Shown here: positions 3,006-54,766 of the stretch, piece after piece
Layout: each line of letters opens with the position of its first letter
Position numbering within the stretch: the stretch's first letter is position 1
Source: Minisyncoccota bacterium
GTDB taxonomy: Bacteria; Patescibacteriota; Minisyncoccia; Phycocordibacterales; UBA9973
Direction of reading: 5' to 3'
Assembly: GCA_041659785.1 (NCBI GenBank)
Contig: JBAZXO010000001.1
Span: 241,649-305,648 of the forward strand
Length of the DNA: 64,000 nucleotides
The notes under the pieces: generated by a model
Seen by the model: only the letters and a program-made list of their open reading frames with translations
Databases searched by the model: none
What the model was told of the DNA's origin: nothing
Program-made: the position numbers and the translations under genes

Positions 3006-3308
3006 GCAGGCATCGGATAGCTACTCTTAAAACTTCGGTTTTTGGGGAGGAAAGTCCGAACACAGTTCACCCGCCTCTGGTGGGCGAAAAACAAGTAGAG
3101 GGTAACGCCCTCCCATAGCGATATGGAGTTGCGAACAGAAACGACCCGGTTAAGTCCGGCTGAAACGGCTAAATACTTACTCCTGTGCAAGATCGTGTCC
3201 GCCGATGAGGCGGAAGAATCGCTTGAGCCTTAAAGTAATTTAGGGCCTAGATAAATTGCTATCCCCTGACTTCGGTCAGGGCACAAAATTCGGCTTATAG
3301 ATACCTGC
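3006..3308 (+). ncRNA. rnpB: RNase P RNA (bacterial type, reduced)
   Basis: GGAGGAAAGTCCGAACACAG (P4 5' strand), GGTAACGCC, ACAGAAAC and CGGCTTATAG (P4 3' strand) blocks colinear with E. coli M1 RNA. P1 pairs GCAGGCATC with GATACCTGC. Confidence 0.85.
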
Positions 3309-3320
3309 AAAAAAATGAGA

Positions 3321-3348
3321 GTCCCCTGCCAAAAGCAGGGGATTTTCT
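3321..3348 (+). terminator. Rho-independent terminator after rnpB
   Basis: TCCCCTGCcaaaaGCAGGGGATTTTCT. Confidence 0.65.
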
Positions 3349-3417
3349 ATTCCCCTCGTTGAGGGGTGGCGCTTGCACCGGGGTGGATATTCCACCTCCC
3401 CCTAAAGGGTACTCAGG
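3349..3417. repeat. GC-rich structured repeat element, copy A (second copy 22424..22510)
   Basis: CCCCTCgTTGAGGGG hairpin + GGGGTGGAtattCCACCTCCCC hairpin + GGGTACTC, colinear with copy B. Confidence 0.7.
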
Positions 3418-3904
3418 AAGAGGAGAATTCTACACTATCCCCTTCTTTTAGATTATTTTTATCTGCGAAATTAGTAGATACTTCTAAAACATATTTCGCA
3501 TTTTTCCCTGGCGAAAAACTCTCAGGATATGATTCAGGTAAGGCATTTTTTTGTATATAAACTACTTTCAAATCTTCTCCTATCCAAATAATATCTAAAG
3601 GAAAATTCATATCCTTCATCCAAAAAGCATATTGGCCAGGCTGAGGAAATACAAAAAGCATTCCTTCGTTTTCTTTTAACTCAGTTCTTCCTGAAAGTCC
3701 CTTTTCTTGTATTTCCGAAGTCAGAGCTAAATCAACTTTTATATTTTGTCCCGCTATCTTTACGTATTTTAAATCTTCCAGCCTCTCCCCAACCTCTCTC
3801 CATTTAATGTAAATGGAGAGAGGCAAAGGGGTGAGGTAAGTATAAATTCCGAAAATTACTATCAAAAAAATTACAAAGCCAAAAAAATAATTTTTATTTT
3901 TCAT
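3413..3904 (-). CDS. DUF192-family protein with N-terminal membrane anchor. ORF extends to 3964; the likely start is the internal Met at 3904.
   Basis: FWMKDMNFPLDIIWI motif typical of DUF192/COG1430. Hydrophobic N-terminus. Confidence 0.6.
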   Translation of the reverse strand: MKNKNYFFGFVIFLIVIFGIYTYLTPLPLSIYIKWREVGERLEDLKYVKIAGQNIKVDLALTSEIQEKGLSGRTELKENEGMLFVFPQPGQYAFWMKDMNFPLDIIWIGEDLKVVYIQKNALPESYPESFSPGKNAKYVLEVSTNFADKNNLKEGDSVEFSSS

Positions 3905-5415: not shown

Positions 5416-8400
5416 ACGCAACAAAATTCTCATTAATAATTCCCTTCTTCGCATCTATTAAACCAGAAGTATAAACAGTAGTATATGATTCATCTGGATT
5501 CTTGCGGTCTATGGTAATGTGATATTCGCCTTTAGCAAGCAGACAATAATAATGACCATATTTATCAGCAACACGGTGGAAGATTTCTTGCGGGAAGCCT
5601 TTTCTAAAGACACGAATGACAGCATATGATAAAGGAGCTTTAGTTGCAGAATCGATAATAGTACCGAAGGTCTTAGGTTTGAAACCAAGTAAGTGGAGAG
5701 CCAAAAGAATACCATAGACGATAAGGATAGCTAAGTTAAGTTTGTCTGGTCGAGATATGAAAAGTCCAATGACAGAGATGAGTCCTATATAGAAGAGAGC
5801 ATTTAGAGCAGCGTTAATGATGCGTGTATTCTTAGAGTAAAACATCATAAGTTTCTTATCTCTCTTCGCAAATTCATTCCAGTCGAAAGCGAGAGGGTCC
5901 ATCGGAATGTTTTTAATGATAACTTCGTTTGTACCCAAAAGAACTTCCCCGCCAAAATATAAATTATCATAAAGTTCATCACTCATTTTACCAGCAAGTT
6001 TTGCTGAAGGAGCTCGATAGTTAGTCTTCTTTGTAGAAATTTGATATGAACCAGGAGGAACAAGGAAACCAAAACGTCCATCCAGGTCTGTAATCGCTGT
6101 TTGAACTTCTTTACCAGTATTATCATTTAAAACTACATAAACTGGATCAAGTGGTTGTTTGGTGACACTGTCGTATACAGTTCCCCATGGCGCGCGTTTC
6201 TTTCTTAGGCCAAGAGACACAAGTAGGACACTCCAGAGTCGTAATATCATAAATGGGATATCTGCAAAAGAAGCTGCTTCTCCACCTACAGAGGCAAGCG
6301 CAATAGCACTACCTCCCCCTGCTCCGAGGGCTGTGACTGTAGTCGTTGTGGCGTTACCTACCGGTGTATCAGAAAATTCAGTAATATTTTTTCTAGTTGT
6401 AGTGATAGCTTTTTTGATTTCGGGTGTAAGAATAGAATTTACTAAATTAGATATAATTGTTTGTCCTGAATCAATAGAAGAATTACCTTCACCAGAACTT
6501 GAGCCACCAACACCAGAACTTCCTGCTCCACCTCCAGTGCCAGCACCTCCGCTTGTTCCAGTTCCACTTCCGGCACCAGAGCCTGATCCACCGGTGCTAC
6601 CACCCGTACCTGATCCACCGCCTGCGCCAGAAGAACCACTTCCCCCCGTTCCTCCACTTGTTCCAGAGCCTCCAGTTCCTCCTCCTGTTCCAGAGCCTCC
6701 ACTAGTATCTTCTCCACTTGTACCACTTTCTACTGTTACAACAACGCTTCCACTTCCTGTTCTTCCAAGACCACCAGTACATGTAAGAGTATACGTATAA
6801 ATTCCAACAGGAAGAGGGTTTGTCGTATAAGTTCCTGAGCCTTCTGTTGATCCAGACCAGTTTCCAGATTTTATACAACCATTAGTTACATTTTGCGTTG
6901 AAAATGTAATGACTGATGTCCCATTGACTGGAATAGATGTTGGATTGGCAGTAACGGTGACAACTGGAGCAAGGGGTGTTTGAAAATCTGTAATATTTTT
7001 AGTTGTAAAGGATAAAATAGAACCTTCAACTTTTCCACTTGAATTCTTCGCAACAGCGCGGAAATAATATGTAGTGTTCTTTGTGAGACCAGAAATCGTA
7101 TCAGAAAAATCACTAACAGCAGATCCTTGGCTGTTATGCGTCGTTTCATTATTTAAAATAGTTTCAGATGTTCCCCACTCAAACCAGCGTGTCGTATCAG
7201 AAGTGCCATTAGGATCCACATTCCCATTGAGTGTTGCATCTGTATCTGTAATAGATGTTGCACTGTTCGTTATAACTTTTGGTGTTTGCAAAATTATTCC
7301 ACCTCCGCCCGTAGGAGAAGGCGCACCAACATTTGTATCATATGATACTGTTACAGAAGATAATGTGGGCGTAGCAGCTCCGCCAGAAGAGAGAAATGCT
7401 TTATATTGAAAATATCTATCATTATCGCTAATAGTAAGAGGATGATTTGAAACAAAGGCAATATCGTTGTTTGCATCAAGGAAATAATCAGTACCATCAC
7501 AGGCTAAAGCAGGCCCGCACCAATTTGACCAGGTGACATTGTCTGCCGAAGAACGTACTTGAAATTTTACAATTTCAGTGGAAGATGTTCCACTAGTTGC
7601 CCAGGCTAATTTTGTAACTTTGTTTGTTGCAGAACTAGAATCAAAGACCGATGAAGTGAGGTTTCCACTTGCACCATACTGCGAATAATTTATGGTGACA
7701 TCACTTAAGGCGGGAGTGACAGTAGTATCGGTAGTGGCAAGGTTAGCACGATATTGAATATAACGATTACCAGCAAGTGCGCCAATACTTCCTCCACTAA
7801 CTACATTTGTCGTCCAAGCTGTCCATGTACCATCCGGTATAGCTACATTGCCTGCTCGCACATCCACTGTAATACTGGTAAGTGCAGGTAATGTCGTTGT
7901 GTATGCAAGAGTTGTAAAATTTGCTTTTGCTCCTGTGTCTATTACCGCAGAAGTGAAGGTGCCGGAAGCTGCGTACGCAGTAGCAATATTAACTTTACTG
8001 ACAATATTGTCAAAACCACTTGAAACCCACATTGAGTCTGTAAAACTATCAAAAATAAGATTACCTGGACTAGTGCCAACAATATAAGTGTTCAAAACAG
8101 CACCGGTATTGATATCAATTTGACTAATTGTATTATCCACAACATTTGGTGTCCATATTGAACTATTCAAATCATCAAAAGCGGGATAATTGGGACCAAT
8201 GCCAACAGCATAAGTACCGACTATGGCTCCAGTACTAACATTAACTTTAATAACTGTATTATTATTTGCATCTGTGACCCACACAGAATTTGTAATACTA
8301 TCAAAAACTACGCCGCCAACACCAGATGTACCCACAGTGTACGTGCCCAGAACAGCACCAGTCGTAGCATTAAGTTTAATAAGATTATTACTAACAGTAC

Positions 8401-9262: not shown

Positions 9263-9367
9263 TATTTTTATTATATCATAGCAAAAAAATAAAATGCAAA
9301 TCCCCTCACCCCTTTCTTTCCCCTCTCCATAATTTTAATTATGGAGAGGGGTTGGGGAGAGGAGAAT

Positions 9368-15833: not shown

Positions 15834-17852
15834 TTATACCCGGTAGTAGAGCTTTTTGCAAAGTCTCACTACCGGGTTATACACTAATAATAATAAGACA
15901 ACAAACAAAAGAACCGTCTTCCAGTCAAGACTAGACAGGAAACTTCGACCAGATTTCATCTCGATATTTTGGTGTACACCACTACCTTCCTCCACTAAAA
16001 AAACTTTACCTTGATAAGTGTCATATCCAGGAGCTACTACTTCGAAATAATACGAACCCCCAGGGACCAAGAATGAATAAGTACCTCTGATGTCAGTAAC
16101 TTGTGGGTTTTCTTGTTGGTAATCTTTTGCGGGCCATAATTCATATTTTTTTGTAGAATTATTTAGATAATATAAAGAAACAATGGCTGAAGGGATACGT
16201 GTTTCCTTTCCATCTGTCTTTTCAAAGACATATCCTTCTGGGTCAACGACAGTTATCATTCTCATTTGGCGAGTACCAAGTACAGGGTCCACATAATTTA
16301 TAACAGTGATCACTTCATACTCACCTGGTACGACAGGAGTCGCCACATCCGCTGTGTATATGCCGTCACCATCAGGGTCCGTATATTCAAAAGAAGAAAG
16401 TACTAATTTATTTTCTACCACCTCACCCGGCCTTTGGCCACCCTCTCCTGTCAGGAGAGGGGCTGGGGGTGAGGTTTTTTCTACCAAATCATTCGTAGAA
16501 AATAGAGCTGAAGCGGTGAGCAAAGAACGAGAAATTATATTTTGAGTAATTTTAGGTGTAGCGGATTTAAAAACAAAATACCCAGTTACACTTTTTGCTT
16601 TACTTATTGGTTTTACCACCAGCTTGAGTGTCTGCCCAGGTAATGAAGATATCTGCTGAGTTACATCTCCTTTTTTCCCTACTGACAAAGCGACATTTAA
16701 ATCAACCAACTCTCCGGACGTTCTGGCGAAAACGAATTCAGATGGTAAATTTTTCTTTTCAGAAAGAGAAAACTTTGCTAAAGGTAAACCTTGAACGAGA
16801 GCAATCTTCCCTGTGCCCACACTTTTCTTCAATTGCCCATTTATATCAGAGAGACCAGGAATATTTAAGCCTACACCATTTAATTTATTTATGTCAGATA
16901 ACCTCTCTACTCCAGTGCCTTTGAGAGTATTAGTGAGCGCGGTGAGTCCGGGAAGGTTTAAGGTTACGCCATTTAATTTACTTATATCAGTCAATCTTTC
17001 TATGCCTACGCTCTTCAATGTATTAGCAAGTTCTGGAAATTTACTAGCAAGAACACGTACCTCATACGGCAATGGAGCAAAGACGAATTGATTAATAGCT
17101 TTTACGGGTAAGATATACCACTTTGTTTTAAATGAAGGTGGTGCAATTTTAGGAATTTCTATAGCTACTGCTTGTGGAAGTGTTTTTGGTCTAAAGAAAT
17201 TTAAAAAGAAATCCAAGGCAGAAACGGATGTAGATTTTATAGTTTTACCAATCTCATTTGTTACCGTCACAACTGGATTCTCGACTGGTGGAGTTACTGG
17301 TGTCGGCGTAGGTGTTGGATTGGATGTCCAGGGTGGATGTCCTCCGCCTCCTCCGCCGCCCCCACTAGTAGATCTAAGGCTTGCTTTTTTCCAATCTGTT
17401 TTTACTTTAAAGTTTGCCGCATTGCAAGAATCTATGGTTGTACAACTAAAATTAATTCTACTATTGTCAGACTTTACAGATGCATAACCTGAAAAGTATC
17501 CTTGCTCATCTATAGTAACTCCAGTAAAGTTAATCCAGCCAAGATTTGAGCTCCATGCATATCCAGAAAGCACTCCCTCTCCATTGTTTTTAACTCCCGA
17601 AGTAGATGGGTTTAATTTTATCCAACCAAATTGCCTGTTCCAAGCAAAGCCTGAAATATCAGTATCCGTAACACTTACGTTGCAGTTATTACAACCAAAG
17701 TTTAACCAGCCAATATTTTCTCCCCAAGCATATTTGTATGTTCCGTCAATCGTCCCATTCGTCTCCGAGGCAAAAGCATGAGGCACAAAAAAAATCATAG
17801 AAACTAAAATTCCCAAAAGAAATACCTTTCCTTTAATTAAATTAACTGCCAT
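15834..17852 (-). CDS. Secreted repeat protein. N-terminal GW-x-NF repeats, poly-Gly/Pro-Thr linker, leucine-rich-like ~40-aa tandem repeats, a CarboxypepD_reg-like domain and a C-terminal TM anchor.
   Basis: Signal peptide. GGGGGGGGHPPWTSNPTPTPTP. Two copies of VERLxDIxKLNGVxLNxPGL. IRGTYSFLVPGGSYYFEVVAPGY. Hydrophobic C-terminus. Confidence 0.7.
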   Translation of the reverse strand: MAVNLIKGKVFLLGILVSMIFFVPHAFASETNGTIDGTYKYAWGENIGWLNFGCNNCNVSVTDTDISGFAWNRQFGWIKLNPSTSGVKNNGEGVLSGYAWSSNLGWINFTGVTIDEQGYFSGYASVKSDNSRINFSCTTIDSCNAANFKVKTDWKKASLRSTSGGGGGGGGHPPWTSNPTPTPTPVTPPVENPVVTVTNEIGKTIKSTSVSALDFFLNFFRPKTLPQAVAIEIPKIAPPSFKTKWYILPVKAINQFVFAPLPYEVRVLASKFPELANTLKSVGIERLTDISKLNGVTLNLPGLTALTNTLKGTGVERLSDINKLNGVGLNIPGLSDINGQLKKSVGTGKIALVQGLPLAKFSLSEKKNLPSEFVFARTSGELVDLNVALSVGKKGDVTQQISSLPGQTLKLVVKPISKAKSVTGYFVFKSATPKITQNIISRSLLTASALFSTNDLVEKTSPPAPLLTGEGGQRPGEVVENKLVLSSFEYTDPDGDGIYTADVATPVVPGEYEVITVINYVDPVLGTRQMRMITVVDPEGYVFEKTDGKETRIPSAIVSLYYLNNSTKKYELWPAKDYQQENPQVTDIRGTYSFLVPGGSYYFEVVAPGYDTYQGKVFLVEEGSGVHQNIEMKSGRSFLSSLDWKTVLLFVVLLLLVYNPVVRLCKKLYYRV

Positions 17853-46526: not shown

Positions 46527-48536
46527 ATGAACAAAAATAACCATAAAATAAAAGAGCAAAAGAACAAATTGCAAGGCATCATATCTGTCTCCTCTAAGGG
46601 TACAGGATATGTCAAAGTTCTGGGACATGAAGAAGACATTGAAATTGATTTCAAGCACCTAAACACTGCACTACATGGAGACGTTGTAGAAATAATTACT
46701 CACAAAAAGGAAAGGGATAGGATCACTGGTGAAGTAACGAAAATAATATCCCGCGCAAAAACTCGTTTCACGGGAATTCTAGAAGAAGAAAACAAGCTAT
46801 TTTTTTTGAAACCAGATGATACGAAAATGTACACCGATATCTTAATTCCGAAAGAAAATTTAAATAATGCTAAAAATGGACAAAAGGTTTTCGTAGAAAT
46901 AACTTCATGGATTGATGCAAAGAAGGCCCCAATCGGAAAAGTGATAAAAGTTCTAGGACATCCAGGAGACAACAACACTGAGATGTATGCGATAGCGATA
47001 GAAAAAGGTTTCGACTCAGACCTTCCTGATAAAGTAGAAATTGAAGCAAAAAAAATAAAACAAAATGGTATAAAAGAAACTGACTATAAAGGGCGTCGCG
47101 ATTTTAGAAATACCTTAACTTTCACAATCGATCCCTCAGATGCGAAAGATTTCGATGATGCAATATCTTTCAAGGAAATTGCAAACGGAGAATATGAGAT
47201 AGGTATACACATTGCTGACGTTTCGTATTATGTAAAAAATGGTACTGCTTTAGATGAAGAGGCACGCGAGAGAGGAACTTCTGTTTATTTAGTAGACAGG
47301 ACAATACCAATGCTTCCGGAAATTCTTTCGAATGATTTGTGTTCCCTAGTTCCCAACAAAGATCGCCTCACCATGAGTGCCGTTTTCGTTGTTGATAAAA
47401 ATGCAAAAGTTAAGGGTGAATGGTTCGGCCGTACGATAATACATTCACAAAAAAGATTTACTTATGAGAGTGCTGAAGATGTAATAAAAATCGCCTCTTT
47501 GGCGATCCGCCGTGGAGGCGGAGTACTCAATGATCCATACCAACAAGCATTATTTACGCTTAATAACTTAGCAAAAAAATTAACCAAAGAAAGATTTGAA
47601 AAAGGAGCAATTTCGCTAGACCAAGAAGAGGTGAAATTTGTACTCGACGCAAATGGAGTGCCAATAAAAGTAATTAAAAAGGAACGCGGTGATTCAAATA
47701 GATTGATTGAGGAATTTATGCTTCTCGCAAATAAAAAAGTCGCAGAAGTTTTGTCACCCAGAAATATCAAGGGAATAAAAAGCTCGAAGATAACAGAAAA
47801 GGATGAAAGCGTATCTATATACAGAGTACACGACCTGCCAAGCAAAGAAAAAATGGCTGATTTAGCATTTTTCTTAAGAAGTTTAGGGCATAAAGTTTCT
47901 TTACAAAATGGCGTTATCCCTACCCATGAAATAAATAAACTTCTTTTAAGTTTAGCTGGGAAAAATGAAGCTGATACGGTAAATCGCGCAGTAATACGCT
48001 CCATGGCTAAAGCAATTTATTCTACGAAAAACATAGGGCATTACGGTCTCGCTTTTGAATATTATACTCACTTCACTTCCCCGATCAGACGCTATCCAGA
48101 CATCATTGTTCACAGACTCCTCACAAAATATCTTTCTGGTAATAAAACCAAAAAAGAAAATTTATTAAATGAATTGAAAGAGTATGAAAAGATTGCATTA
48201 GTTTCCTCAGACCAAGAAAAACGTGCTTCAGATGCCGAGCGAGCTTCTATAAAATATAAACAAGTGGAATATATGTCTAAACGTTTGGGTAAAAGTTTCG
48301 AAGGAGTCATCAGTGGTATGACCGAGTGGGGCATGTATGTAGAAGAAGTAGAGACAAAATGCGAGGGCCTAGTGCGAGTGCGAGACATGACTGACGATTT
48401 TTATATTTACAATGAAAAGAAATTAGAATTAGTTGGGCAAAAAAAGAAAAAGAGATACCGTCTAGGTGATAAGGTAAAGATAAGAGTAAAAGCAGTTGAC
48501 TTAGAAAGAAAAACTATTGATTACGCTTTAGTGTAA
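46527..48536 (+). CDS. rnr: Ribonuclease R / RNase II-family 3'-5' exoribonuclease
   Basis: RNB catalytic motif DAKDFDDAISF. N-terminal cold-shock-like and C-terminal S1 domains. Confidence 0.85.
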   Translation: MNKNNHKIKEQKNKLQGIISVSSKGTGYVKVLGHEEDIEIDFKHLNTALHGDVVEIITHKKERDRITGEVTKIISRAKTRFTGILEEENKLFFLKPDDTKMYTDILIPKENLNNAKNGQKVFVEITSWIDAKKAPIGKVIKVLGHPGDNNTEMYAIAIEKGFDSDLPDKVEIEAKKIKQNGIKETDYKGRRDFRNTLTFTIDPSDAKDFDDAISFKEIANGEYEIGIHIADVSYYVKNGTALDEEARERGTSVYLVDRTIPMLPEILSNDLCSLVPNKDRLTMSAVFVVDKNAKVKGEWFGRTIIHSQKRFTYESAEDVIKIASLAIRRGGGVLNDPYQQALFTLNNLAKKLTKERFEKGAISLDQEEVKFVLDANGVPIKVIKKERGDSNRLIEEFMLLANKKVAEVLSPRNIKGIKSSKITEKDESVSIYRVHDLPSKEKMADLAFFLRSLGHKVSLQNGVIPTHEINKLLLSLAGKNEADTVNRAVIRSMAKAIYSTKNIGHYGLAFEYYTHFTSPIRRYPDIIVHRLLTKYLSGNKTKKENLLNELKEYEKIALVSSDQEKRASDAERASIKYKQVEYMSKRLGKSFEGVISGMTEWGMYVEEVETKCEGLVRVRDMTDDFYIYNEKKLELVGQKKKKRYRLGDKVKIRVKAVDLERKTIDYALV

Positions 48537-48539
48537 ACA

Positions 48540-48565
48540 CTATCAAACACCCAATGTTTAACAAG
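48540..48565. repeat. Degenerate REP hairpin copy
   Basis: CTATCAAACACCCAATGTTTAACA versus consensus CTGTCAAACACCCGATGTTTGACA. Confidence 0.5.
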
Positions 48566-48574
48566 CCGTAATAT

Positions 48575-49090
48575 CTAATAACTATTCCCTATTGTTTTTA
48601 TAAAAGTGTTTGCTCCAGTTCCACCATATTGATAAAACAAACCACCACAATAGTTAGCACCCGGGTCAGGACCCTTTGCTTCTTCTGTCCGATATACAAA
48701 CATATAAAATGGCCCACAATTAACATAGGAATATGCACCACCATTAATACCCCAAATATTTGGATCTGTGCTCTGGTTTGGATCTTTTGCAAGACTACCA
48801 AGAAAAGGAGCTAATTGTGTAGCCAAACTTGTCCAAGAATTATCGCTACTATTTGACCAACCAGCATTAGGTGCTGTTGCTCCCCCAGAAATTGGATAAG
48901 TACCATTTGTGTTAAAATATAATTCTATCGCTAGAATAATTTGATGAACATCAGATTTTCTTTTTGCATCACGTCCTCTTAATCTAGCTGGACTTAATGC
49001 AGCAAAAATTACTGTCGCTAAAAGACCGACAATTGCCACAACAACTAAAAGTTCGATAAGAGTAAAACCTTTTCTTTCATTTTTAAACAT
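48575..49090 (-). CDS. Type IV pilin / pseudopilin with prepilin-type N-terminal cleavage-methylation motif
   Basis: KG|FTLIELLVVVAIVGLLA. Likely start is the internal Met at 49090. Confidence 0.8.
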   Translation of the reverse strand: MFKNERKGFTLIELLVVVAIVGLLATVIFAALSPARLRGRDAKRKSDVHQIILAIELYFNTNGTYPISGGATAPNAGWSNSSDNSWTSLATQLAPFLGSLAKDPNQSTDPNIWGINGGAYSYVNCGPFYMFVYRTEEAKGPDPGANYCGGLFYQYGGTGANTFIKTIGNSY

Positions 49091-49144
49091 ACAGTTCATA
49101 TTATACAACTTAAATCTACGACAAGACAATTAAAAAAAAATTAT

Positions 49145-49179
49145 TTAGCAATCTGGGTCGCTTCGTCGAATTTTAACTG
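49145..49179. repeat. 35-bp imperfect direct repeat (DR1), duplicate of the smc 3' end at 50503..50535
   Basis: ttagcaatctgggtcgcttcgtcgaattttaactg versus ttggcaatctgtgttgcttcgtcgaattttactg. The DR1 reverse complement encodes KFDEATQIAK*. Confidence 0.75.
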
Positions 49180-49201
49180 TCAAACACCCGATGTTTGACA
49201 G
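49177..49201. repeat. REP hairpin copy 1
   Basis: CTGTCAAACAcccgatgTGTTTGACAG palindrome. Confidence 0.8.
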
Positions 49202-49206
49202 TTTAG

Positions 49207-49869
49207 TCAGTCTAAATTAAACTCTTCCCTCTTTTCTTTTACTCCACTAGTTTTAATAAAATAATTGTATTCATTTTTGTTTTTAAATTGTTCAAGGATA
49301 ATTTCATTTTTTAAAATCTCACCAAAACGATTTTCTTTAATATAATCCTGATAACTTGACCAAGGAAAAATATTTTCTTTTCCCTTCCACTCATTTAATT
49401 CTTTTGGATTCAAATGCACATAAGCAGAAAGATGCAGAAGCTGTTCATTGTCTTCAACATGAACTGCTTTATACGGTCCTTCAAAAAGATGCCCAGAAAC
49501 ACCATATCGAGTGTTAAAATATTTTGTATAAGAATTTAAAACACGTTGCATGTATTTACCTATTCCTCTTTCTTTAGTTTCTTTTATGATAAGGTGGAAA
49601 TGGTTGGGCATCAAAGCAAAACCGGTCAATTCCACAAATCTCTTTGAGATTAAGTTACTTTTTACATCATTATCAATGTCAAACACCCGATGTTTGACAT
49701 AGGAAGAAACAATTCTAGAAATTTGAGGAAAATTATTCTCTGCTTGAAAATATAAAATTAGAAAAAGAAAACGAATTCGATCTCTATCGTCTTTAAAAAT
49801 TATTTTCTTTCCTACTCCCCTATTATAAATATGATAATATTCATTTACTGCAATATTGTCTCGGTTCAT
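49207..49869 (-). CDS. REP-associated tyrosine transposase (IS200/IS605 TnpA-like Y1 transposase, RAYT)
   Basis: HuH motif MPNHFHLII and catalytic Tyr region AYVHLNP. Flanking REP hairpins. Confidence 0.8.
   Translation of the reverse strand: MNRDNIAVNEYYHIYNRGVGKKIIFKDDRDRIRFLFLILYFQAENNFPQISRIVSSYVKHRVFDIDNDVKSNLISKRFVELTGFALMPNHFHLIIKETKERGIGKYMQRVLNSYTKYFNTRYGVSGHLFEGPYKAVHVEDNEQLLHLSAYVHLNPKELNEWKGKENIFPWSSYQDYIKENRFGEILKNEIILEQFKNKNEYNYFIKTSGVKEKREEFNLD
49676..49700. repeat. REP hairpin copy 2 (inside the RAYT coding sequence)
   Basis: ATGTCAAACACCCGATGTTTGACAT encodes VKHRVFDI. Confidence 0.75.
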
Positions 49870-49898
49870 TATTTTATTTTACTACCAACGAAGAAAAA

Positions 49899-49923
49899 CT
49901 GTCAAACATCGGGTGTTTGACAG
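49899..49923. repeat. REP hairpin copy 3 (inverted relative to copy 1)
   Basis: CTGTCAAACAtcgggtgTGTTTGACAG is the exact reverse complement of copy 1. Confidence 0.8.
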
Positions 49924-49924
49924 T

Positions 49925-50473
49925 TTAATTAATCAATTTAAAAGTTTTCATTATGTCTGGAATTTGTAAAAGTAATTTAATTTCACTATCATTAAGCCCA
50001 TAAATTTTGACTAAGGAGCGCACATCATAATCATTAGAAACAAAAACATTATTTTGGTTCTCTGCCAAAAACTTATAGCCACTCGCATAAAGTGGATATT
50101 TATAATAAAAATCCTTAGAAATTATTATTATTTGTATATCACCAGTTCCCCTAGTAGAGTTTTTATCTATTATTTTAAAATTAACACTGTGTCTATACTC
50201 TGAGTTTAATTCATCCCCAAAAGAAACAATATACCCTCTCCAATCATAAGGGAAAGTTAATTCAAATCCATAATCTTTATTAGCGTACGTATTCGAGCCA
50301 ATCAGCCAACTAACTGGGGTAATTTTATTATTTATATTTTTTGTATTTCCATTCTTTTCTGTAATTATATTTGAGCTTTGAGACCCTGCATAATAATACC
50401 CAATCGCACATAAAAGTGTCAGAACAATTATAACTGCAATGAATTTCAAGGGATTTTTTTCTAATTTTTCCAT
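49925..50473 (-). CDS. Hypothetical membrane-anchored/secreted protein
   Basis: N-terminal TM after MEKLEKN. No known domain. Confidence 0.5.
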   Translation of the reverse strand: MEKLEKNPLKFIAVIIVLTLLCAIGYYYAGSQSSNIITEKNGNTKNINNKITPVSWLIGSNTYANKDYGFELTFPYDWRGYIVSFGDELNSEYRHSVNFKIIDKNSTRGTGDIQIIIISKDFYYKYPLYASGYKFLAENQNNVFVSNDYDVRSLVKIYGLNDSEIKLLLQIPDIMKTFKLIN

Positions 50474-50498
50474 ATATCGAAAGCTTACTACTTTAATC

Positions 50499-52634
50499 TT
50501 ACTTGGCAATCTGTGTTGCTTCGTCGAATTTTACTGAGAGGAGTTTGGATGCGCCGTCGGAGCCTATAGTGACGCCGTAGAGTATGCCAGCGCGAGACAT
50601 CGTCTCGCGATTGTGAGTGACGACGATGAGCTGAGATTTATGAGAAAGTTTCTCCAACATATCTCCGTATTTTCTAGAATTTGCTTCATCGAGGGCTGCA
50701 TCCGTTTCATCGAGCACGAGGAATGGTGGCGGATTCACTTGTGACATAGCGAAGAGAAGTGCGATAGAGGTTAGGGATCTTTCCCCTCCTGAAAAGGCAT
50801 TGAGTTCTTTTACTTTCTTGTGTGGAAGAGAAACATTTATTTCTATTCCGTGCTCAATTACGACTTCTTCGTCATCTTCTTCTTCAAAATCCAATTCCTC
50901 TTCCGACTCCTCGTCGGATCGCCGTCGAGGCGATTTCTTAATTTCAACAATAGAAAGCGATCCATGTCCCCCGCCGAACATCAGAGAGAAGAACTCCTGA
51001 AATTCCACATTTATTTTCTTTATACCCTCTTTAAATTCTATATCAATTTTTTCTTTCAAGTCGGCAATGAGCTTCTGTAAAGATTCAATACTTTTTTCTA
51101 AATCCTCCATCTCTTTTAACAAGAATTGGTCACGCTCAGAAACTTCCTTATATTCTTTCATTAATTCTGCCCCGTTTCCAAGTCCTGCGTCTTCTAATTT
51201 TATTTTTATACGCTCAATTTTTCTCTTTAAATCTTCCTGACTAATTCCCTCACCCTCTATTTGGAAATTCTTGTAAGATAAAATCTCTGCACCTATTAAA
51301 GCTGAGCCTTCTTTTATCTCATTTTCGAATGCCTCATTTCTACTCGTTAGATTTCTCTCTCTTATAGACACAAGTTCCAAGGCAGAAGATAATTCTTGAT
51401 GCTTAACCTTAAAGGCAAATTTCTCCCTTTCCAAGTCACGCAAGGCTTCCATTTCTTTATTTATCTCTTGTTTTAATGTTTCTATAGAATGAGCCAGCTT
51501 TTCCTCTTCCTCTTGTAATTTTTGTATTTCAGTAACAACATTAATCTGTGAATTTTTTAATTCTTCCAATTCTTTTTCTTCATTATGTTTTTTTTCTATT
51601 TGTTCCTCTCCATTATCTTTAATCTCATTTCCACACAATGGACATCTGCCAGAAATTTTTACCTTATTTTCCCTTATTTCTAAAATTCCTTCTATGCGTC
51701 CAAGCTTGCGTTCAAGTTCATTCTTTAATCCATGAGTAATGTTTATTTTTTGCTCAATAGTTTTCAATTCCTCCAATTTTTTATTTCCGCCGGCGGTGTT
51801 ACTGTCTTCAGTGATGGAAATTTTACTATTAACACTCTTGATCTCCGCCTCGAGGTGGCTTCTCTCCTCTTTTAAATTATCTTTTTCTTTTTCTAAATAA
51901 ACACTCTCATTTTTTAAATATTCTCTATAAAGAGAGGTTAACTCCCCTTGCATTTCTTTTGTTTTTTCAAATTTTTCTACTTGTTTCTTTAAGAAATTAA
52001 TATGTGGAGCATTTTCTCTGCGCAAGAGAACAATTTCTTTCATATTTTCATTTGTTCTTTCTAGTTTTCTCTCACTTTCTTTTATTTTGTATTGATATAT
52101 TTTGAGCCCGAGCGCGTCTTCTACCATTTCCTTTCTGTCTCTAGAATTCGCATTCAGAATTCTGTCAGCCTCACCTTGAGAAATGATGTGGTGCCCAGAA
52201 GAACCGATGTTCACCGAAGCGAGCAAGTTATGAATATCTTTCAATCTAACTTCTGTCCCATTTAAAATATATTTATTTAACCCATCAGAAAAAACCTCCC
52301 GAGAAATCGAGATAACGTCGTAATTCAAATTTATATCTTCTCCCCCATCGTTCGTTAGTTTAAAAACTTTATCAGTATTATTAAAAAATATAGTAACCGC
52401 CGCACGAGAACCTTTTGCTAAATTTTTCGAACCCTTAAAGACAAGGTCTGATCCTCCCTTTCCACGCATTGATTTCATTGATTGTTCACCCAGAACAAAG
52501 CGAATAGATTCTACGACGTTAGACTTTCCAGATCCATTCGGACCCACGATAGAAACGATAGGACTTTCAAACTCCAAAACAGTTTTTTGGGCAAAGGATT
52601 TAAAACCATTTAATTGAAGTGTTTTGAGTCGCAT
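50499..52634 (-). CDS. smc: SMC/Rad50-family ATPase, unusually short (711 aa) with a central CxxC zinc-hook-like motif
   Basis: Walker A GPNGSGKSN, signature LSGGERSL, Walker B LVLDETDAALD, central CPLCGNE. Immediately downstream of rnc. Confidence 0.7.
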   Translation of the reverse strand: MRLKTLQLNGFKSFAQKTVLEFESPIVSIVGPNGSGKSNVVESIRFVLGEQSMKSMRGKGGSDLVFKGSKNLAKGSRAAVTIFFNNTDKVFKLTNDGGEDINLNYDVISISREVFSDGLNKYILNGTEVRLKDIHNLLASVNIGSSGHHIISQGEADRILNANSRDRKEMVEDALGLKIYQYKIKESERKLERTNENMKEIVLLRRENAPHINFLKKQVEKFEKTKEMQGELTSLYREYLKNESVYLEKEKDNLKEERSHLEAEIKSVNSKISITEDSNTAGGNKKLEELKTIEQKINITHGLKNELERKLGRIEGILEIRENKVKISGRCPLCGNEIKDNGEEQIEKKHNEEKELEELKNSQINVVTEIQKLQEEEEKLAHSIETLKQEINKEMEALRDLEREKFAFKVKHQELSSALELVSIRERNLTSRNEAFENEIKEGSALIGAEILSYKNFQIEGEGISQEDLKRKIERIKIKLEDAGLGNGAELMKEYKEVSERDQFLLKEMEDLEKSIESLQKLIADLKEKIDIEFKEGIKKINVEFQEFFSLMFGGGHGSLSIVEIKKSPRRRSDEESEEELDFEEEDDEEVVIEHGIEINVSLPHKKVKELNAFSGGERSLTSIALLFAMSQVNPPPFLVLDETDAALDEANSRKYGDMLEKLSHKSQLIVVTHNRETMSRAGILYGVTIGSDGASKLLSVKFDEATQIAK

Positions 52635-54620: not shown

Positions 54621-54766
54621 AATAAATACATCCTAACATATTATAGATGAAATGCAAAATTTAATTTCATCTACCCCTACCCAGCCTCCCCCTACAGTAG
54701 GGGGAGGAGAAAGGAGGGGGTACACTGAGATTTTTAAAAAAAGCAAAGTATGATAATATAAATACT

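Follow-up and report, generated by a model that had tools for sequence, protein, structure and literature searches.

The locus examined here lies in a Patescibacteria genome in which smc and rnr converge, and the hypervariable gap between them is the site of a small mobile cassette. Just past smc, this cassette comprises a hairpin-flanked, RAYT-like Y1 HuH gene and one orphan gene, and it is bracketed by two copies of the final 11 codons of smc. The locus thus raises the questions of which transposase system the cassette represents, and how it came to lie between two ends of the same host gene. Coordinates refer to the window, the whole stretch of 64,000 nucleotides (64 kb) that was analyzed.

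Layout of the smc–rnr gap

The far edge of the variable gap is formed by rnr (RNase R-like; 46527–48536, forward strand), which the list of open reading frames places convergent on smc. A sequence search located a degenerate hairpin copy with three mismatches (48541–48563, forward strand) 4 nt past the rnr stop codon, in keeping with the one noted after rnr in the preliminary description, and 12 nt from the stop codon of a type IV pilin-like gene (48575–49090, reverse strand; Pfam N_methyl, PHROG pilin). A promoter scan assigned to the pilin-like gene the promoter-like site TTGTCT-18-TATAAT (49100–49129, reverse strand). Ahead of this site, a T9 run comes immediately after the stop codon of DR1 (49141–49175, reverse strand), a relic smc terminus encoding KFDEATQIAK* with no smc body attached. 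DR1 abuts hairpin C (49175–49203; pattern search and folding), which has a 12-bp stem and a 5-nt loop (TCGGG on the Y1 sense strand) and is situated downstream of the Y1 gene (49207–49869, reverse strand). A perfect copy of the hairpin, hairpin B (49676–49700; pattern search), lies inside the Y1 reading frame. Upstream of the Y1 gene are a promoter-like site (49876–49905, reverse strand; 11/12 matches in the promoter scan) and hairpin A (49896–49926; 13-bp stem), inverted with respect to hairpin C. Between hairpin A and the end of smc is the orphan gene (49925–50473, reverse strand), a hypothetical gene already recorded at 180 aa, which encodes 182 aa when read from its ATG. The second repeat copy, DR2 (50499–50533, reverse strand), also encodes KFDEATQIAK* and is the functional terminus of the smc-like gene (50499–52634, reverse strand; 711 aa, SMC_N 181 bits), the host gene, which has its 3′ end in two copies. 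All features of the preliminary description were recovered no more than a few bases from their given positions, and chance accounts for none of them.

The cassette, orphan gene and smc-tail copy amount to 1358 bp in total, which is also the period of the repeat, and the GC content of the cassette block is 27–29% versus 34–45% in the flanks. The block contains only the Y1 gene and the orphan gene, with no tyrosine or serine recombinase gene. The orphan gene (GC 27–29%) encodes an N-terminal hydrophobic segment; it has no match in Pfam, NCBIfam or PHROG, and when 5.8 billion protein clusters were searched with a word index, the protein matched only itself. The junction running from the Y1 gene through hairpin C and DR1 to the pilin-like gene is identical across three independent assemblies (that of the window, L123 and L124). 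L123 is a short contig from another sample with an odd inverted junction at the hairpin.

The Y1 protein and its hairpin

The identification of the 220-aa protein as a Y1 HuH transposase in the preliminary description is supported by its Pfam Y1_Tnp score (32.6 bits; gathering threshold 23), and by alignment, modeling and fold matching. The HuH motif is N89-H90-F91-H92, and the tyrosine motif is Y150-V-H-L-N-P (YVHLNP), with a C-terminal WSSY tail. In an alignment of 21 homologues, N89-H-F-H92, Y150, H152 and N154 are invariant, and the proline of the tyrosine motif is frequent without being invariant: in a few homologues the motif ends in S or C instead. The AF2 model (pTM 0.77) has 4er8_A (E. 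coli TnpA_REP) as its best PDB match in Foldseek, with 2vic, 2xo6 and 2a6m as further top hits; the fold matches after 4er8_A are IS608 and ISDra2 TnpA. Sequence and predicted fold place the protein in the Y1 HuH transposase superfamily, which is defined by a HuH motif and a single catalytic Tyr on an RRM-like fold. YVHLNP fits Y-x-x-x-N-P, the class 2 tyrosine signature, whereas IS200 transposases carry Y-x-x-x-Q (PMC6006769). Its 28.9 bits against the NCBIfam REP_Tyr_transpos equivalog fall short of the cut-off of 80. A homologue search returned 3330 homologues, and every one with a named source came from Patescibacteria lineages; the Y1/hairpin family is large and Patescibacteria-wide, and a member in this lineage is nothing exceptional, contrary to the preliminary description. 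Class 2 Y1 proteins were already known from many phyla (PMC6006769).

The perfect 23-nt hairpin core, TGTCAAACA-CCCGA-TGTTTGACA, occurs at 49178–49200 (+), 49677–49699 (+) and 49900–49922 (−), and the full palindrome is 25 nt (CTGTCAAACA-CCCGA-TGTTTGACAG), the length first reported, the string quoted there being two letters too long. Shuffled sequence is expected to yield 0 core matches, against the three perfect copies and one degenerate copy observed. The flanking hairpins are inverted, as previously noted, with 33-nt arms (49172–49204 and 49896–49928) that are 97% complementary, and as DNA they form stable hairpins of −11.9 and −12.7 kcal/mol, with z-scores of roughly −7.5 to −8; the degenerate copy folds weakly (−2.4 kcal/mol). 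No GTAG or GTGG, the GT[AG]G tag, stands beside any of the three copies, the foot being AAAC-TGTCAAACA. Within the window the hairpin is confined to the cassette locus, with three local copies and one degenerate neighbor. The flanking and degenerate copies had been recognized before, and the third perfect copy, inside the Y1 reading frame, had been overlooked; dispersal of the motif is seen only in related genomes.

Hairpin A may have regulatory roles. Its 3′ arm appears to supply the −35 box of the Y1 promoter (TTGACA), followed at 18 nt spacing by TAAAAT, its end 6 nt short of the ATG. The same hairpin/promoter geometry recurs in L001, L002, L042, L115 and L152. Hairpin A also scores as a terminator for the orphan gene, and the Y1 protein might regulate its own expression via the promoter hairpin.

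Hairpin B encodes V58-K-H-R-V-F-D64 of the Y1 protein, a peptide that the AF2 model places in a surface loop modeled with low confidence. The Y1 reading frame contains a repeat of the flanking hairpin, at nt 148–190, in 17 homologue loci, and internal and flanking hairpins co-vary even where their sequence is unrelated (L062, CTTGGAGA..; L031, CTTGGCGG..; L114, TGTTCGACT..); in L028 a compensatory change occurs in the hairpin stem. The codons of the internal motif are fixed against the usual codon preference: GTC encodes Val in 10/10 cases, compared with 8% outside the motif, and GAC encodes Asp in 10/10, compared with 32% outside it. A few of the more distant homologues (L062, L031, L013) have a second internal copy between the HuH and Tyr motifs. 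Nearly all homologue loci carry flanking hairpins, with the downstream copy in direct orientation in L002 and L079. In related metagenome-assembled genomes (MAGs), solitary copies with a genome-specific loop are found on several contigs, and 53 of the 104 copies sampled there fall within open reading frames. Intragenic copies lie in frame inside housekeeping genes, where they encode VKHxVFD, and a single frame is used in 18 of the 19 inspected.

With its Y1 gene between inverted copies of a cognate 25-nt hairpin, the cassette is a REPtron-like system. The E. coli TnpA_REP is a RAYT of subclass 2.2 (PDB 4er8; Quentin et al. 2018, PMC6006769). Like the E. coli REPtron, the present system has a single Y1 HuH protein with Y-x-x-x-N-P, inverted cognate palindromes flanking the gene, and a hairpin variant particular to each genome or lineage that co-varies with the gene; TnpA_REP is also the best structural match. 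Unlike the REPtron, it lacks the GT[AG]G foot tag and scores far below the REP_Tyr_transpos cut-off; the protein has 220 aa and ends in WSSY, and its AT-rich hairpin forms a perfect 10–13-bp stem. Copy density in the window is low, half of the sampled copies are intragenic, and close relatives do not share the position of the gene. RAYT REPs are dispersed through their genome in many, mainly extragenic copies; the window, 64 kb of the source genome, has three local copies and one degenerate copy, and related MAGs have solitary copies on several contigs. The earlier assignment to the RAYT type accordingly stands as regards Y-x-x-x-N-P and the inverted hairpins, but not as regards the equivalog cut-off and the tag.

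In subclass 2.4, REPs of variable length and sequence occur in frame within tnpA_REP, between HuH and Tyr (PMC6006769). The present family similarly has a cognate hairpin inside the transposase gene, where it leaves the frame intact and maps to the periphery of the protein. However, the main copy here precedes HuH, has a fixed position (aa 58–64) and fixed codons, and adds no length relative to homologues lacking it (L083, L039); the motifs also differ, being NH[IFV]H/WQ/YIxNNP in subclass 2.4 and NHFH/FQ (FE/FQ)/YVHLNP/WSSY here. With the internal copy ahead of HuH (aa 90–92) and with these motifs, the protein does not fit subclass 2.4. Subclass 2.1, or TIRYT, is described as lacking REP-like hairpins and carrying just GGGGWSAS inverted repeats at its termini (Di Nocera 2013, PMC3733652; Quentin 2018, PMC6006769). 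By eye, the likeness to this subclass extends to NH[YF]H, FQ, Y[IV]HLNP, a proximal SS-motif tail and a similar size (subclass median 238 aa), but the hairpins here are clear in flanking, internal and dispersed positions. Rickettsia palindromic elements and intragenic REPs (Di Nocera 2013) are likewise short palindromes that lie in frame in housekeeping genes and add a peptide; those described here are only ~23–27 nt, use one frame in 18/19 cases and are tied to a Y1 gene with the same motif. IS200/IS605 insertion sequences have subterminal LE and RE hairpins in one orientation, several identical copies and often a tnpB gene; the cassette does not fit them, given the YVHLNP motif, the inverted hairpins, the single copy of the Y1 gene in the window and the absence of tnpB from the 64 kb.

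Duplicated gene ends and empty sites

The direct repeats described earlier as imperfect 35-bp copies are identical at 31 of 35 positions (49141–49175 versus 50499–50533), and all four differences are synonymous third-position changes. DR2 is the true end of the 711-aa SMC_N protein, as the preliminary description held. The tail SVKF(E/D)EAT(Q/A)IAK is exact in 95 of the 120 closest SMCs, and nearly all others are one or two residues off. Between the SMC of the window and that of L154, amino acid identity is 83%, with ~90% nucleotide identity in the head domains; the gene is ~91% identical to L154 up to its end, with no recombination breakpoint visible. The L154 tail differs from DR1 at three positions and from DR2 at five, too few sites to establish polarity.

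Similar pairs occur elsewhere: at a cupredoxin-like gene in L080, at both a DEAD helicase tail and an L28-like tail in L042, and in Ga0172379_10000662, which also has an smc tail pair, with a different hairpin. Across the tail pairs there are 35 differences in 222 nt, 25 of them at third codon positions, and the codon changes comprise 24 synonymous ones, among them a TCC/AGC serine switch, and 6 non-synonymous ones; all relics keep frame and stop. The third-position excess (in-situ decay would predict 50%; P = 0.008 by position and 0.03 by codon) argues modestly against duplication in situ. The hairpin cores at these loci are still 100% identical. Repeat length ranges from 35 to 69 nt, and the distance from relic to hairpin is 0–13 nt. 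In L042 the order is D(f)-28(relic)-cassette-D(relic)-ORF93-28(f), and the spacers differ between the two copies. Relic tails are found in only 3 of about 17 Y1 loci and, among 155 distinct hairpin copies scanned, only beside Y1-flanking hairpins, being absent beside solitary copies. Tail duplication beside cassettes is systematic, with divergence of a coding type.

Measured against relatives, the cassette is an insertion, in agreement with the original interpretation. In L154 and L134 smc abuts rnr, with stop codons 7–10 nt apart and no cassette; in L077 smc is followed after 4 nt by a solo hairpin and then by a 69%-identical pilin homologue 3′ of smc, without the orphan gene, Y1 gene or relic. 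In the L077 sub-lineage the pilin-like gene is native to the smc–rnr locus. The claim that the insertion is recent is not borne out: smc DNA of the nearest relative with an empty site shows only ~90% identity, and no empty-site genome of >95% identity was found. Homologues that are 80–84% identical occupy unrelated contexts (HicAB/MFS, DEAD/L28, NUDIX/DUF8173 and smc/rnr), and hairpin-bounded blocks are rearranged between strains. A typical RAYT is single-copy and vertically inherited at a conserved locus (Bertels et al. 2017), whereas relatives sharing the smc synteny here lack the Y1 gene.

Origin of the cassette

The preliminary description proposed that the insertion had carried or regenerated the smc terminus, and the synonymous-only differences, with the same architecture elsewhere, bear this out to the extent that one copy is a displaced or carried terminus. 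On balance, we lean towards arrival of the cassette by inter-lineage recombination together with a foreign smc end, displacing the resident end, rather than by canonical cut-and-paste with target duplication; the repeat itself does not appear to be a transposase-made target duplication. Incoming DNA would have joined smc seamlessly through homology on one side, leaving one lineage's version as the working end (DR2), and the opposite join would fall exactly at the outer edge of hairpin C, with the other lineage's end (DR1) left as an untranslated relic ahead of the pilin promoter. The Y1 enzyme may have made the hairpin-side join, or the DNA may have been end-joined illegitimately where Y1 had cut it or at the end of a hairpin; such a step would be needed because ordinary RecA recombination could not have used a repeat of only 35 bp with this many mismatches. 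Parallels are offered by tyrosine-integrase islands at tRNA/tmRNA and other gene ends, which restore the 3′ terminus of the gene they enter, and by the homology-facilitated illegitimate recombination of transformable bacteria. The proposed event would resemble these in that a replacement terminus is brought in while the displaced one stays as a direct repeat, and in that a seamless homologous join on one side is paired with a non-homologous join on the other. Unlike such islands, the cassette has no integrase, the repeat cores are non-identical, and the fixed end is a hairpin presumably recognized by the HuH enzyme. An integrase-type element, which would have an identical att core at both ends, was rejected since the block has no recombinase gene and the repeats differ at 4/35 positions.

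Which tail copy is foreign is less secure, and DR2 is provisionally taken as the incoming one. With the opposite polarity, DR1 would have been carried along by the cassette or the downstream pilin unit after a previous residence next to the smc of another lineage, and DR2 would be the resident, unaltered end. We give this a limited chance: it would yield the same final structure, hairpin-bounded multi-gene blocks do move between strains, the L077 pilin after smc means that a unit of smc tail, pilin and hairpin could be excised, and smc lacks a breakpoint near its end. However, the relic is always the tail of the gene across the cassette (in the window, in L080 and for both L042 tails), which fits displacement at a homologous site better than carry-over, and the closer match of DR1 to the L154 tail (3 versus 5 differences) is a slight further hint. 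Duplication in place of a long target site (35–70 bp, through staggered nicks or fork repair), with copies then diverging where they lie, would account for direct repeats bracketing the inserted block in three Y1 loci and for a repeat length that varies as imprecise repair might allow. It is nevertheless unlikely given the predominance of third-position and synonymous changes (25/35 differences; 24/30 changed codons) without loss of frame or stop, the unchanged hairpin cores and the differing L042 spacers; moreover, to our knowledge HuH Y1 transposases of the IS200/IS605 type (IS608, ISDra2) produce no target duplication.

Canonical IS200/IS605 single-strand peel-and-paste, with hairpin C as the right end, the left end in the smc tail and insertion 3′ of a short target motif (..CAGT(T)A|AAATTC), seems very unlikely. 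A Y1 HuH fold is present, the right boundary coincides exactly with the hairpin at three loci, and the similar short sequences CAGTA and CAGTTA precede the two repeat copies; yet no hairpin lies close to the left boundary, the nearest being ~620 nt away in the window, 76 nt away in L080 and 128 nt away in L042. In addition, the two flanking hairpins point in opposite directions instead of sharing an orientation, the window has one gene copy and no tnpB, and the tyrosine motif is Y-x-x-x-N-P, not the Y-x-x-x-Q of IS200 (PMC6006769). As the contig is metagenome-assembled, one could imagine that the repeat is coincidental or that two strains were fused in assembly, and the inverted junction in L123 might be read in that way, but either is scarcely credible: the junction is the same in three independent assemblies, the repeat is 31/35 identical with its frame preserved, and the architecture recurs in unrelated MAGs from other studies. 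Coincidence is also countered by the synonymous-only differences and by the same arrangement at other genes (L042, L080) and at smc in Ga0172379_10000662.

Beyond this locus, it is conceivable, if rather doubtful, that the family constitutes a Patescibacteria-spanning HuH Y1/hairpin system in which the recognition hairpin is written in one frame into the transposase gene and housekeeping genes, and in which cassettes enter the 3′ ends of conserved genes by hairpin-end joining, bringing a replacement terminus and leaving a relic. If true, this would be a terminus-regenerating mode of HuH integration, undescribed for RAYTs or IS200/IS605. The duplicated gene end beside a hairpin at other genes hints at how such cassettes may move.

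Structure and context of the cassette behind smc

The genes of the locus, rnr excepted, lie on the minus strand, as do both smc ends. The smc-like gene (52634..50499; 711 aa, SMC_N) closes with its functional terminus, ...LLSVKFDEATQIAK* (DR2, 50533-50499), and a 25-nt spacer separates this from an orphan ORF (50473..49925) whose 182-aa product is hydrophobic at its N-terminus. Hairpin A (49926-49896) stands between the orphan ORF and the 220-aa Y1 transposase ORF (49869..49207), which contains hairpin B (49700-49676) and is followed 3′ by hairpin C (49203-49175). Immediately after hairpin C lies DR1 (49175-49141), a second stretch coding for KFDEATQIAK*, and then a T9 run with a promoter-like site (TTGTCT-18-TATAAT), a pilin-like gene (49090..48575), a degenerate hairpin (48563-48541) and, on the plus strand, the end of the convergent rnr (stop codon, 48536). 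The 23-nt hairpin core, TGTCAAACA-CCCGA-TGTTTGACA, is present at the locus in three perfect copies and one with three mismatches, and is absent from the remainder of the 64 kb, with zero copies expected by chance in the window. As DNA, the perfect copies fold with –8.8 to –12.7 kcal/mol. The inserted block has a GC content of 27-29%, compared to 34-45% in its surroundings, and an Rfam scan of 48300-50700 (E <= 1) returned no match. Separately, the window holds long perfect hairpins with a CCYCTCTCC...GGAGAGRGG stem (3782-3823, 9320-9351, 16441-16461 and 54685-54707), which could represent terminators or another repeat family of this genome.

Comparison with relatives at rnc-smc bore out the insertion proposed in the preliminary description. 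The order thrS-L32-nusB/nudix-rnc-smc ... rnr is common to the window and its relatives. In the relative locus L154 (SMC 83% identical in amino acids, and ~90% in nucleotides in the head domains) 7 nt separate the stop codons of smc and rnr, in L134 the distance is 10 nt, and in four others (L155-L158) a peptidase gene occupies the gap. L077 (SMC 81%) lacks the cassette: its smc is followed, 4 nt on, by a solo hairpin with a CCCGA loop, then a promoter and a pilin gene (69% identical), and the orphan and Y1 genes, a second hairpin and a relic are all missing downstream of smc. Set against L077, the extra DNA is the unit of 1358 bp that runs from DR2 to DR1. Homology between the L077 solo hairpin and hairpin A outside the hairpin itself was too weak to use. 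The downstream partner of smc varies in almost every relative (Nudix, HAD-like, Maf-like, GC-rich hairpin), and therefore the smc/rnr gap is a hotspot.

The orphan protein matched only itself in a homologue search; a PHROGs search with the Y1 and orphan proteins found no match, and an exact-sequence look-up of the smc and orphan proteins found no record. Two further observations concern the relatives. Window smc (50499-52634) and L154 (6001-8259) share ~90-94% DNA identity in both head domains and only 54-74% in the central coiled-coil and hinge, a part that also differs in length (proteins of 711 and 752 aa); the window gene appears, from this alignment, to be a mosaic. In addition, Paceibacterota-like smc/rnc synteny or the CPR hairpin is seen in records titled 'uncultured Candidatus Saccharibacteria' or 'Gammaproteobacteria' (L077, CAZXCD010000020.1, and the CAZRYK01 contigs), whose bin labels are probably wrong.

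The Y1 protein and its hairpin

The assignment to the Y1-type transposases was upheld by a Pfam profile search (Y1_Tnp, 32.6 bits against a threshold of 23). The narrower label, RAYT, stood only in part. The system resembles a REPtron in its working mode; it differs from strictly defined RAYTs in scoring far below the NCBIfam cut-off for REP-associated tyrosine transposases (28.9 bits against 80), in lacking the GTAG tag, in the absence of Y1 synteny between relatives, and in its often intragenic hairpins. The search for Y1 homologues yielded 3330 proteins, nearly all of 215-230 aa, and those with a source name all come from Paceibacterota, Nomurabacteria or other Patescibacteria. Across an alignment of 21 homologues N-H-F-H and Y-x-H-x-N are invariant, and GHLF(E/Q)GPY and WSSYQDY are also conserved. 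Since a PDB sequence search gave only marginal ISDra2 matches (E ~0.3), a fold search was needed: the best match of the AlphaFold model (pTM 0.77) is E. coli TnpA_REP bound to a REP hairpin (4er8_A), followed by the IS608 and ISDra2 TnpA proteins. By eye only, the NHFH, FQ, Y[IV]HLNP and SS-tail motifs resemble those tabulated for subclass 2.1 by Quentin et al. 2018 (PMC6006769), who describe this subclass as free of REPs. Among the papers searched, none describes a REP/RAYT system in CPR/Patescibacteria.

Y1 homologue loci carry flanking hairpins with genome-specific loops (e.g. CCCGA, CCCGG, TCCGA, CCGAG and TTCAA), and in almost every homologue the hairpin also occurs inside the ORF, at nt 148-190, even where its sequence differs wholly. 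Examples that recur in this manner are CTTGGAGA-ctcag-TCTCCAAG (L062), CTTGGCGG-tgaaa-CCGCCAAG (L031), ACTTGGCGC-ttcgg-GCGCCAAGT (L013) and TGTTCGACT-tacga-AGTCGAACA (L114); L028 has one compensatory stem change in both its internal and its downstream copy. In the TGTCAAACA group, the Val and Asp codons of the internal motif are GTC and GAC in 10/10 cases each, versus 8% and 32% elsewhere. These frozen codons therefore indicate a constraint on the nucleic acid beyond the peptide VKHRVFD, which falls in the sole internal low-confidence loop of the Y1 model. Two homologues without an internal hairpin (L083 and L039) are nonetheless of equal length at that place, and the internal copy is therefore not a simple length-adding insertion. 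In-frame REPs between the HuH and Tyr motifs are described for tnpA_REP of subclass 2.4 (PMC6006769), and thus a hairpin inside a transposase ORF has precedent; the fixed pre-HuH position and family-wide breadth seen here are new to us. TTGACA lies within the hairpin's 3′ arm. Upstream of Y1, in the window and five other loci, this hexamer stands 17-18 nt before a TAAAAT/TATAAT box ending ~6 nt before the Y1 ATG. This spacing makes the upstream hairpin the –35 element of a predicted Y1 promoter, a geometry that suggests Y1 may regulate its own expression by binding the promoter hairpin. Many Patescibacteria genomes also have extra, distant Y1 genes (32-40% identity; chance finds at hairpin loci in L013, L031, L062, L114 and L016), each with its own unrelated hairpin in flanking positions and inside the ORF, and three of these have a further internal copy between the HuH and Tyr motifs.

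A pattern search for the palindrome in a species-representative genome collection matched at least 120 stretches. Among the matches listed, most come from Patescibacteria MAGs; one loop variant is often found on several contigs of a MAG, with no Y1 gene nearby, and 53 of 104 TGTCAAACA-N5-TGTTTGACA copies (L003-L122) lie inside long ORFs. This high intragenic share was unexpected. Of 19 intragenic copies inspected, 18 use one common frame, adding (F/L/P/N)VKHx(V/M)FD, where x was noted as R, S, P or Q, to host proteins that include genuine PyrF, Tgt, MnmA, GatA and TruB. SecD, ComEC-like and other proteins are further hosts, and one 729-aa ORF holds three copies (intragenic examples: L044 4726/4774/4969, L096 1882, L005 4293, L090 2639 and L118 1301). 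The in-frame copies are reminiscent of the palindromic elements of Rickettsia and of the REPs that Di Nocera et al. describe inside genes.

Duplicated gene tails and the arrival of the cassette

DR1 and DR2 are identical at 31/35 positions, and the four differences (GCA/GCG, ACA/ACC, GCC/GCT and AAG/AAA) are all synonymous. Similar relics occur at other loci. In L080, a cupredoxin-like gene ending ...CSVPCGQGHYEQIGTLFVEE* is followed by hairpin, Y1 and hairpin, and the relic CSISCGQGHYEQIGTLFVEE* abuts the downstream hairpin. In L042, both convergent neighbours of the cassette are duplicated, in the order DEAD-helicase tail, L28-like relic, hairpin, Y1, hairpin, DEAD relic, ORF93 and L28-like tail. 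The relic in contig Ga0172379_10000662 is an smc tail. It comes after a hairpin of another, GC-rich kind, where a block bearing a histidine phosphatase gene ends. In the five tail pairs (222 nt), 25 of the 35 differences affect the third codon position, 8 the first and 2 the second; synonymous changes account for 24 of the altered codons and conservative replacements for six, one serine switches between TCC and AGC, and every relic keeps its frame and stop. From these patterns, the copies look like orthologous gene ends that diverged in different lineages while both were translated. Relics lie 0-13 nt from the hairpin and were found only beside Y1-flanking hairpins, at three of ~17 loci; none was found beside solitary hairpins among 155 distinct copies scanned, a match in L117 being a scaffold N-gap artefact and those in L010 belonging to other hairpin families.

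Several side observations touch on the relics. At all three loci with a relic after the downstream hairpin (window, L042 and L080), it is in the reading frame of the Y1 ORF with 1-2 stop codons between (chance ~1 in 27); window 49141-49209 reads ...NLD*LNCQTSGV*QLKFDEATQIAK*. The GC-rich hairpin family, AGGGCGGAGGC-aac-GCCTCCGCCCT (L131 and L132, Ga0172379_10000662; L126, 358-385), is absent from the window. It lies directly 3′ of the smc stop in one genome and beside the relic smc tail in another, where a truncated Nudix-like ORF and the histidine phosphatase gene lie behind smc.

The best-supported route is arrival of the cassette by recombination between lineages. DNA of one lineage, comprising [smc 3′ part - tail - orphan gene - hairpin A - Y1 - hairpin C], would have entered another and joined within smc by homology. 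The join on the other side would coincide exactly with hairpin C's outer edge, 36 nt ahead of the resident stop codon. Through both joins the working smc terminus would have been replaced, leaving the other stranded before the pilin promoter. HuH enzymes cut beside hairpins and religate, and the Y1 enzyme could therefore have made the hairpin-side join; alternatively, illegitimate joining may have occurred at the hairpin or a Y1-cut end, akin to homology-facilitated illegitimate recombination. DR1 is nearer to the L154 tail than DR2 is (three versus five differences), and no recombination breakpoint is visible at the smc 3′ end against L154.

We weighed this route against a genuine long duplication of the target, an IS200/IS605 element of canonical type, a relic borne by the element itself and an artefact. 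Had the copies been identical at birth, as after a long target duplication, a drifting relic should show about half of its differences outside third positions; the observed third-position bias argues against this (P = 0.008). The junction from Y1 through hairpin C and DR1 to the pilin gene is identical in contigs of two other assemblies, and is therefore not an assembly accident. The canonical IS200/IS605 element was rejected on the YVHLNP form of the Tyr motif, the inverted orientation of the flanking hairpins, and the single Y1 copy without a tnpB gene in the window; an integrase-type island was rejected on a block that carries only the Y1 and orphan genes and on repeats that differ at 4 of 35 positions. 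Campbell-type integration via the 35-bp repeat alone was also dismissed as the principal route, the longest run of identity being 16 nt.

Other loci show signs of hairpins as recombination points. In L152, a 61-nt direct repeat (943-1001 and 5976-6036; 95%), consisting of a solo hairpin and 38-nt flank, bounds a 5-kb multi-gene block; one copy follows the Y1 gene and the other lies 5 kb away. In L137 (1803-1860), from another sample, Y1 adjoins the methyltransferase gene located after the solo copy of L152, and thus the hairpin-bounded block is arranged differently between strains. In L142, inverted glutaredoxin genes (2141-2358 and 3304-3521; 74% identical) surround the Y1 cassette, and strains with identical Y1 protein diverge from ~85 nt past the downstream hairpin. 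Finally, the 1.1-kb contig L123 (ENA ERZ27249449 k141_993582) starts with reverse-complement DR1 and hairpin joined to the Y1 upstream region (1-70), which could reflect inversion of the Y1 segment between inverted hairpins or an assembler artefact at the 33-nt inverted repeat.

Implications for Patescibacteria

RAYTs cut REPs in vitro. To our knowledge, the mode of REP/RAYT movement has been unsettled since the first description, and we know of no integration footprint. The Patescibacteria Y1 family offers a readable footprint, a relic gene end set against the hairpin at several host genes, together with a hairpin fixed within both the ORF and the promoter of its own enzyme, in small, streamlined and probably naturally transformable genomes with thousands of metagenomic loci for comparison. 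The in-frame VKHxVFD copies in pyrF, tgt, mnmA, gatA and truB add another case of selfish palindromes shaping proteins. The main interest of the system is that the relic-tail footprint, if it reflects enzyme action, may open the way in which RAYT cassettes move to testing. In that case it would also reveal a route by which accessory genes, such as that for the orphan membrane protein slotted behind smc in the window, enter behind essential Patescibacteria genes without damaging them.
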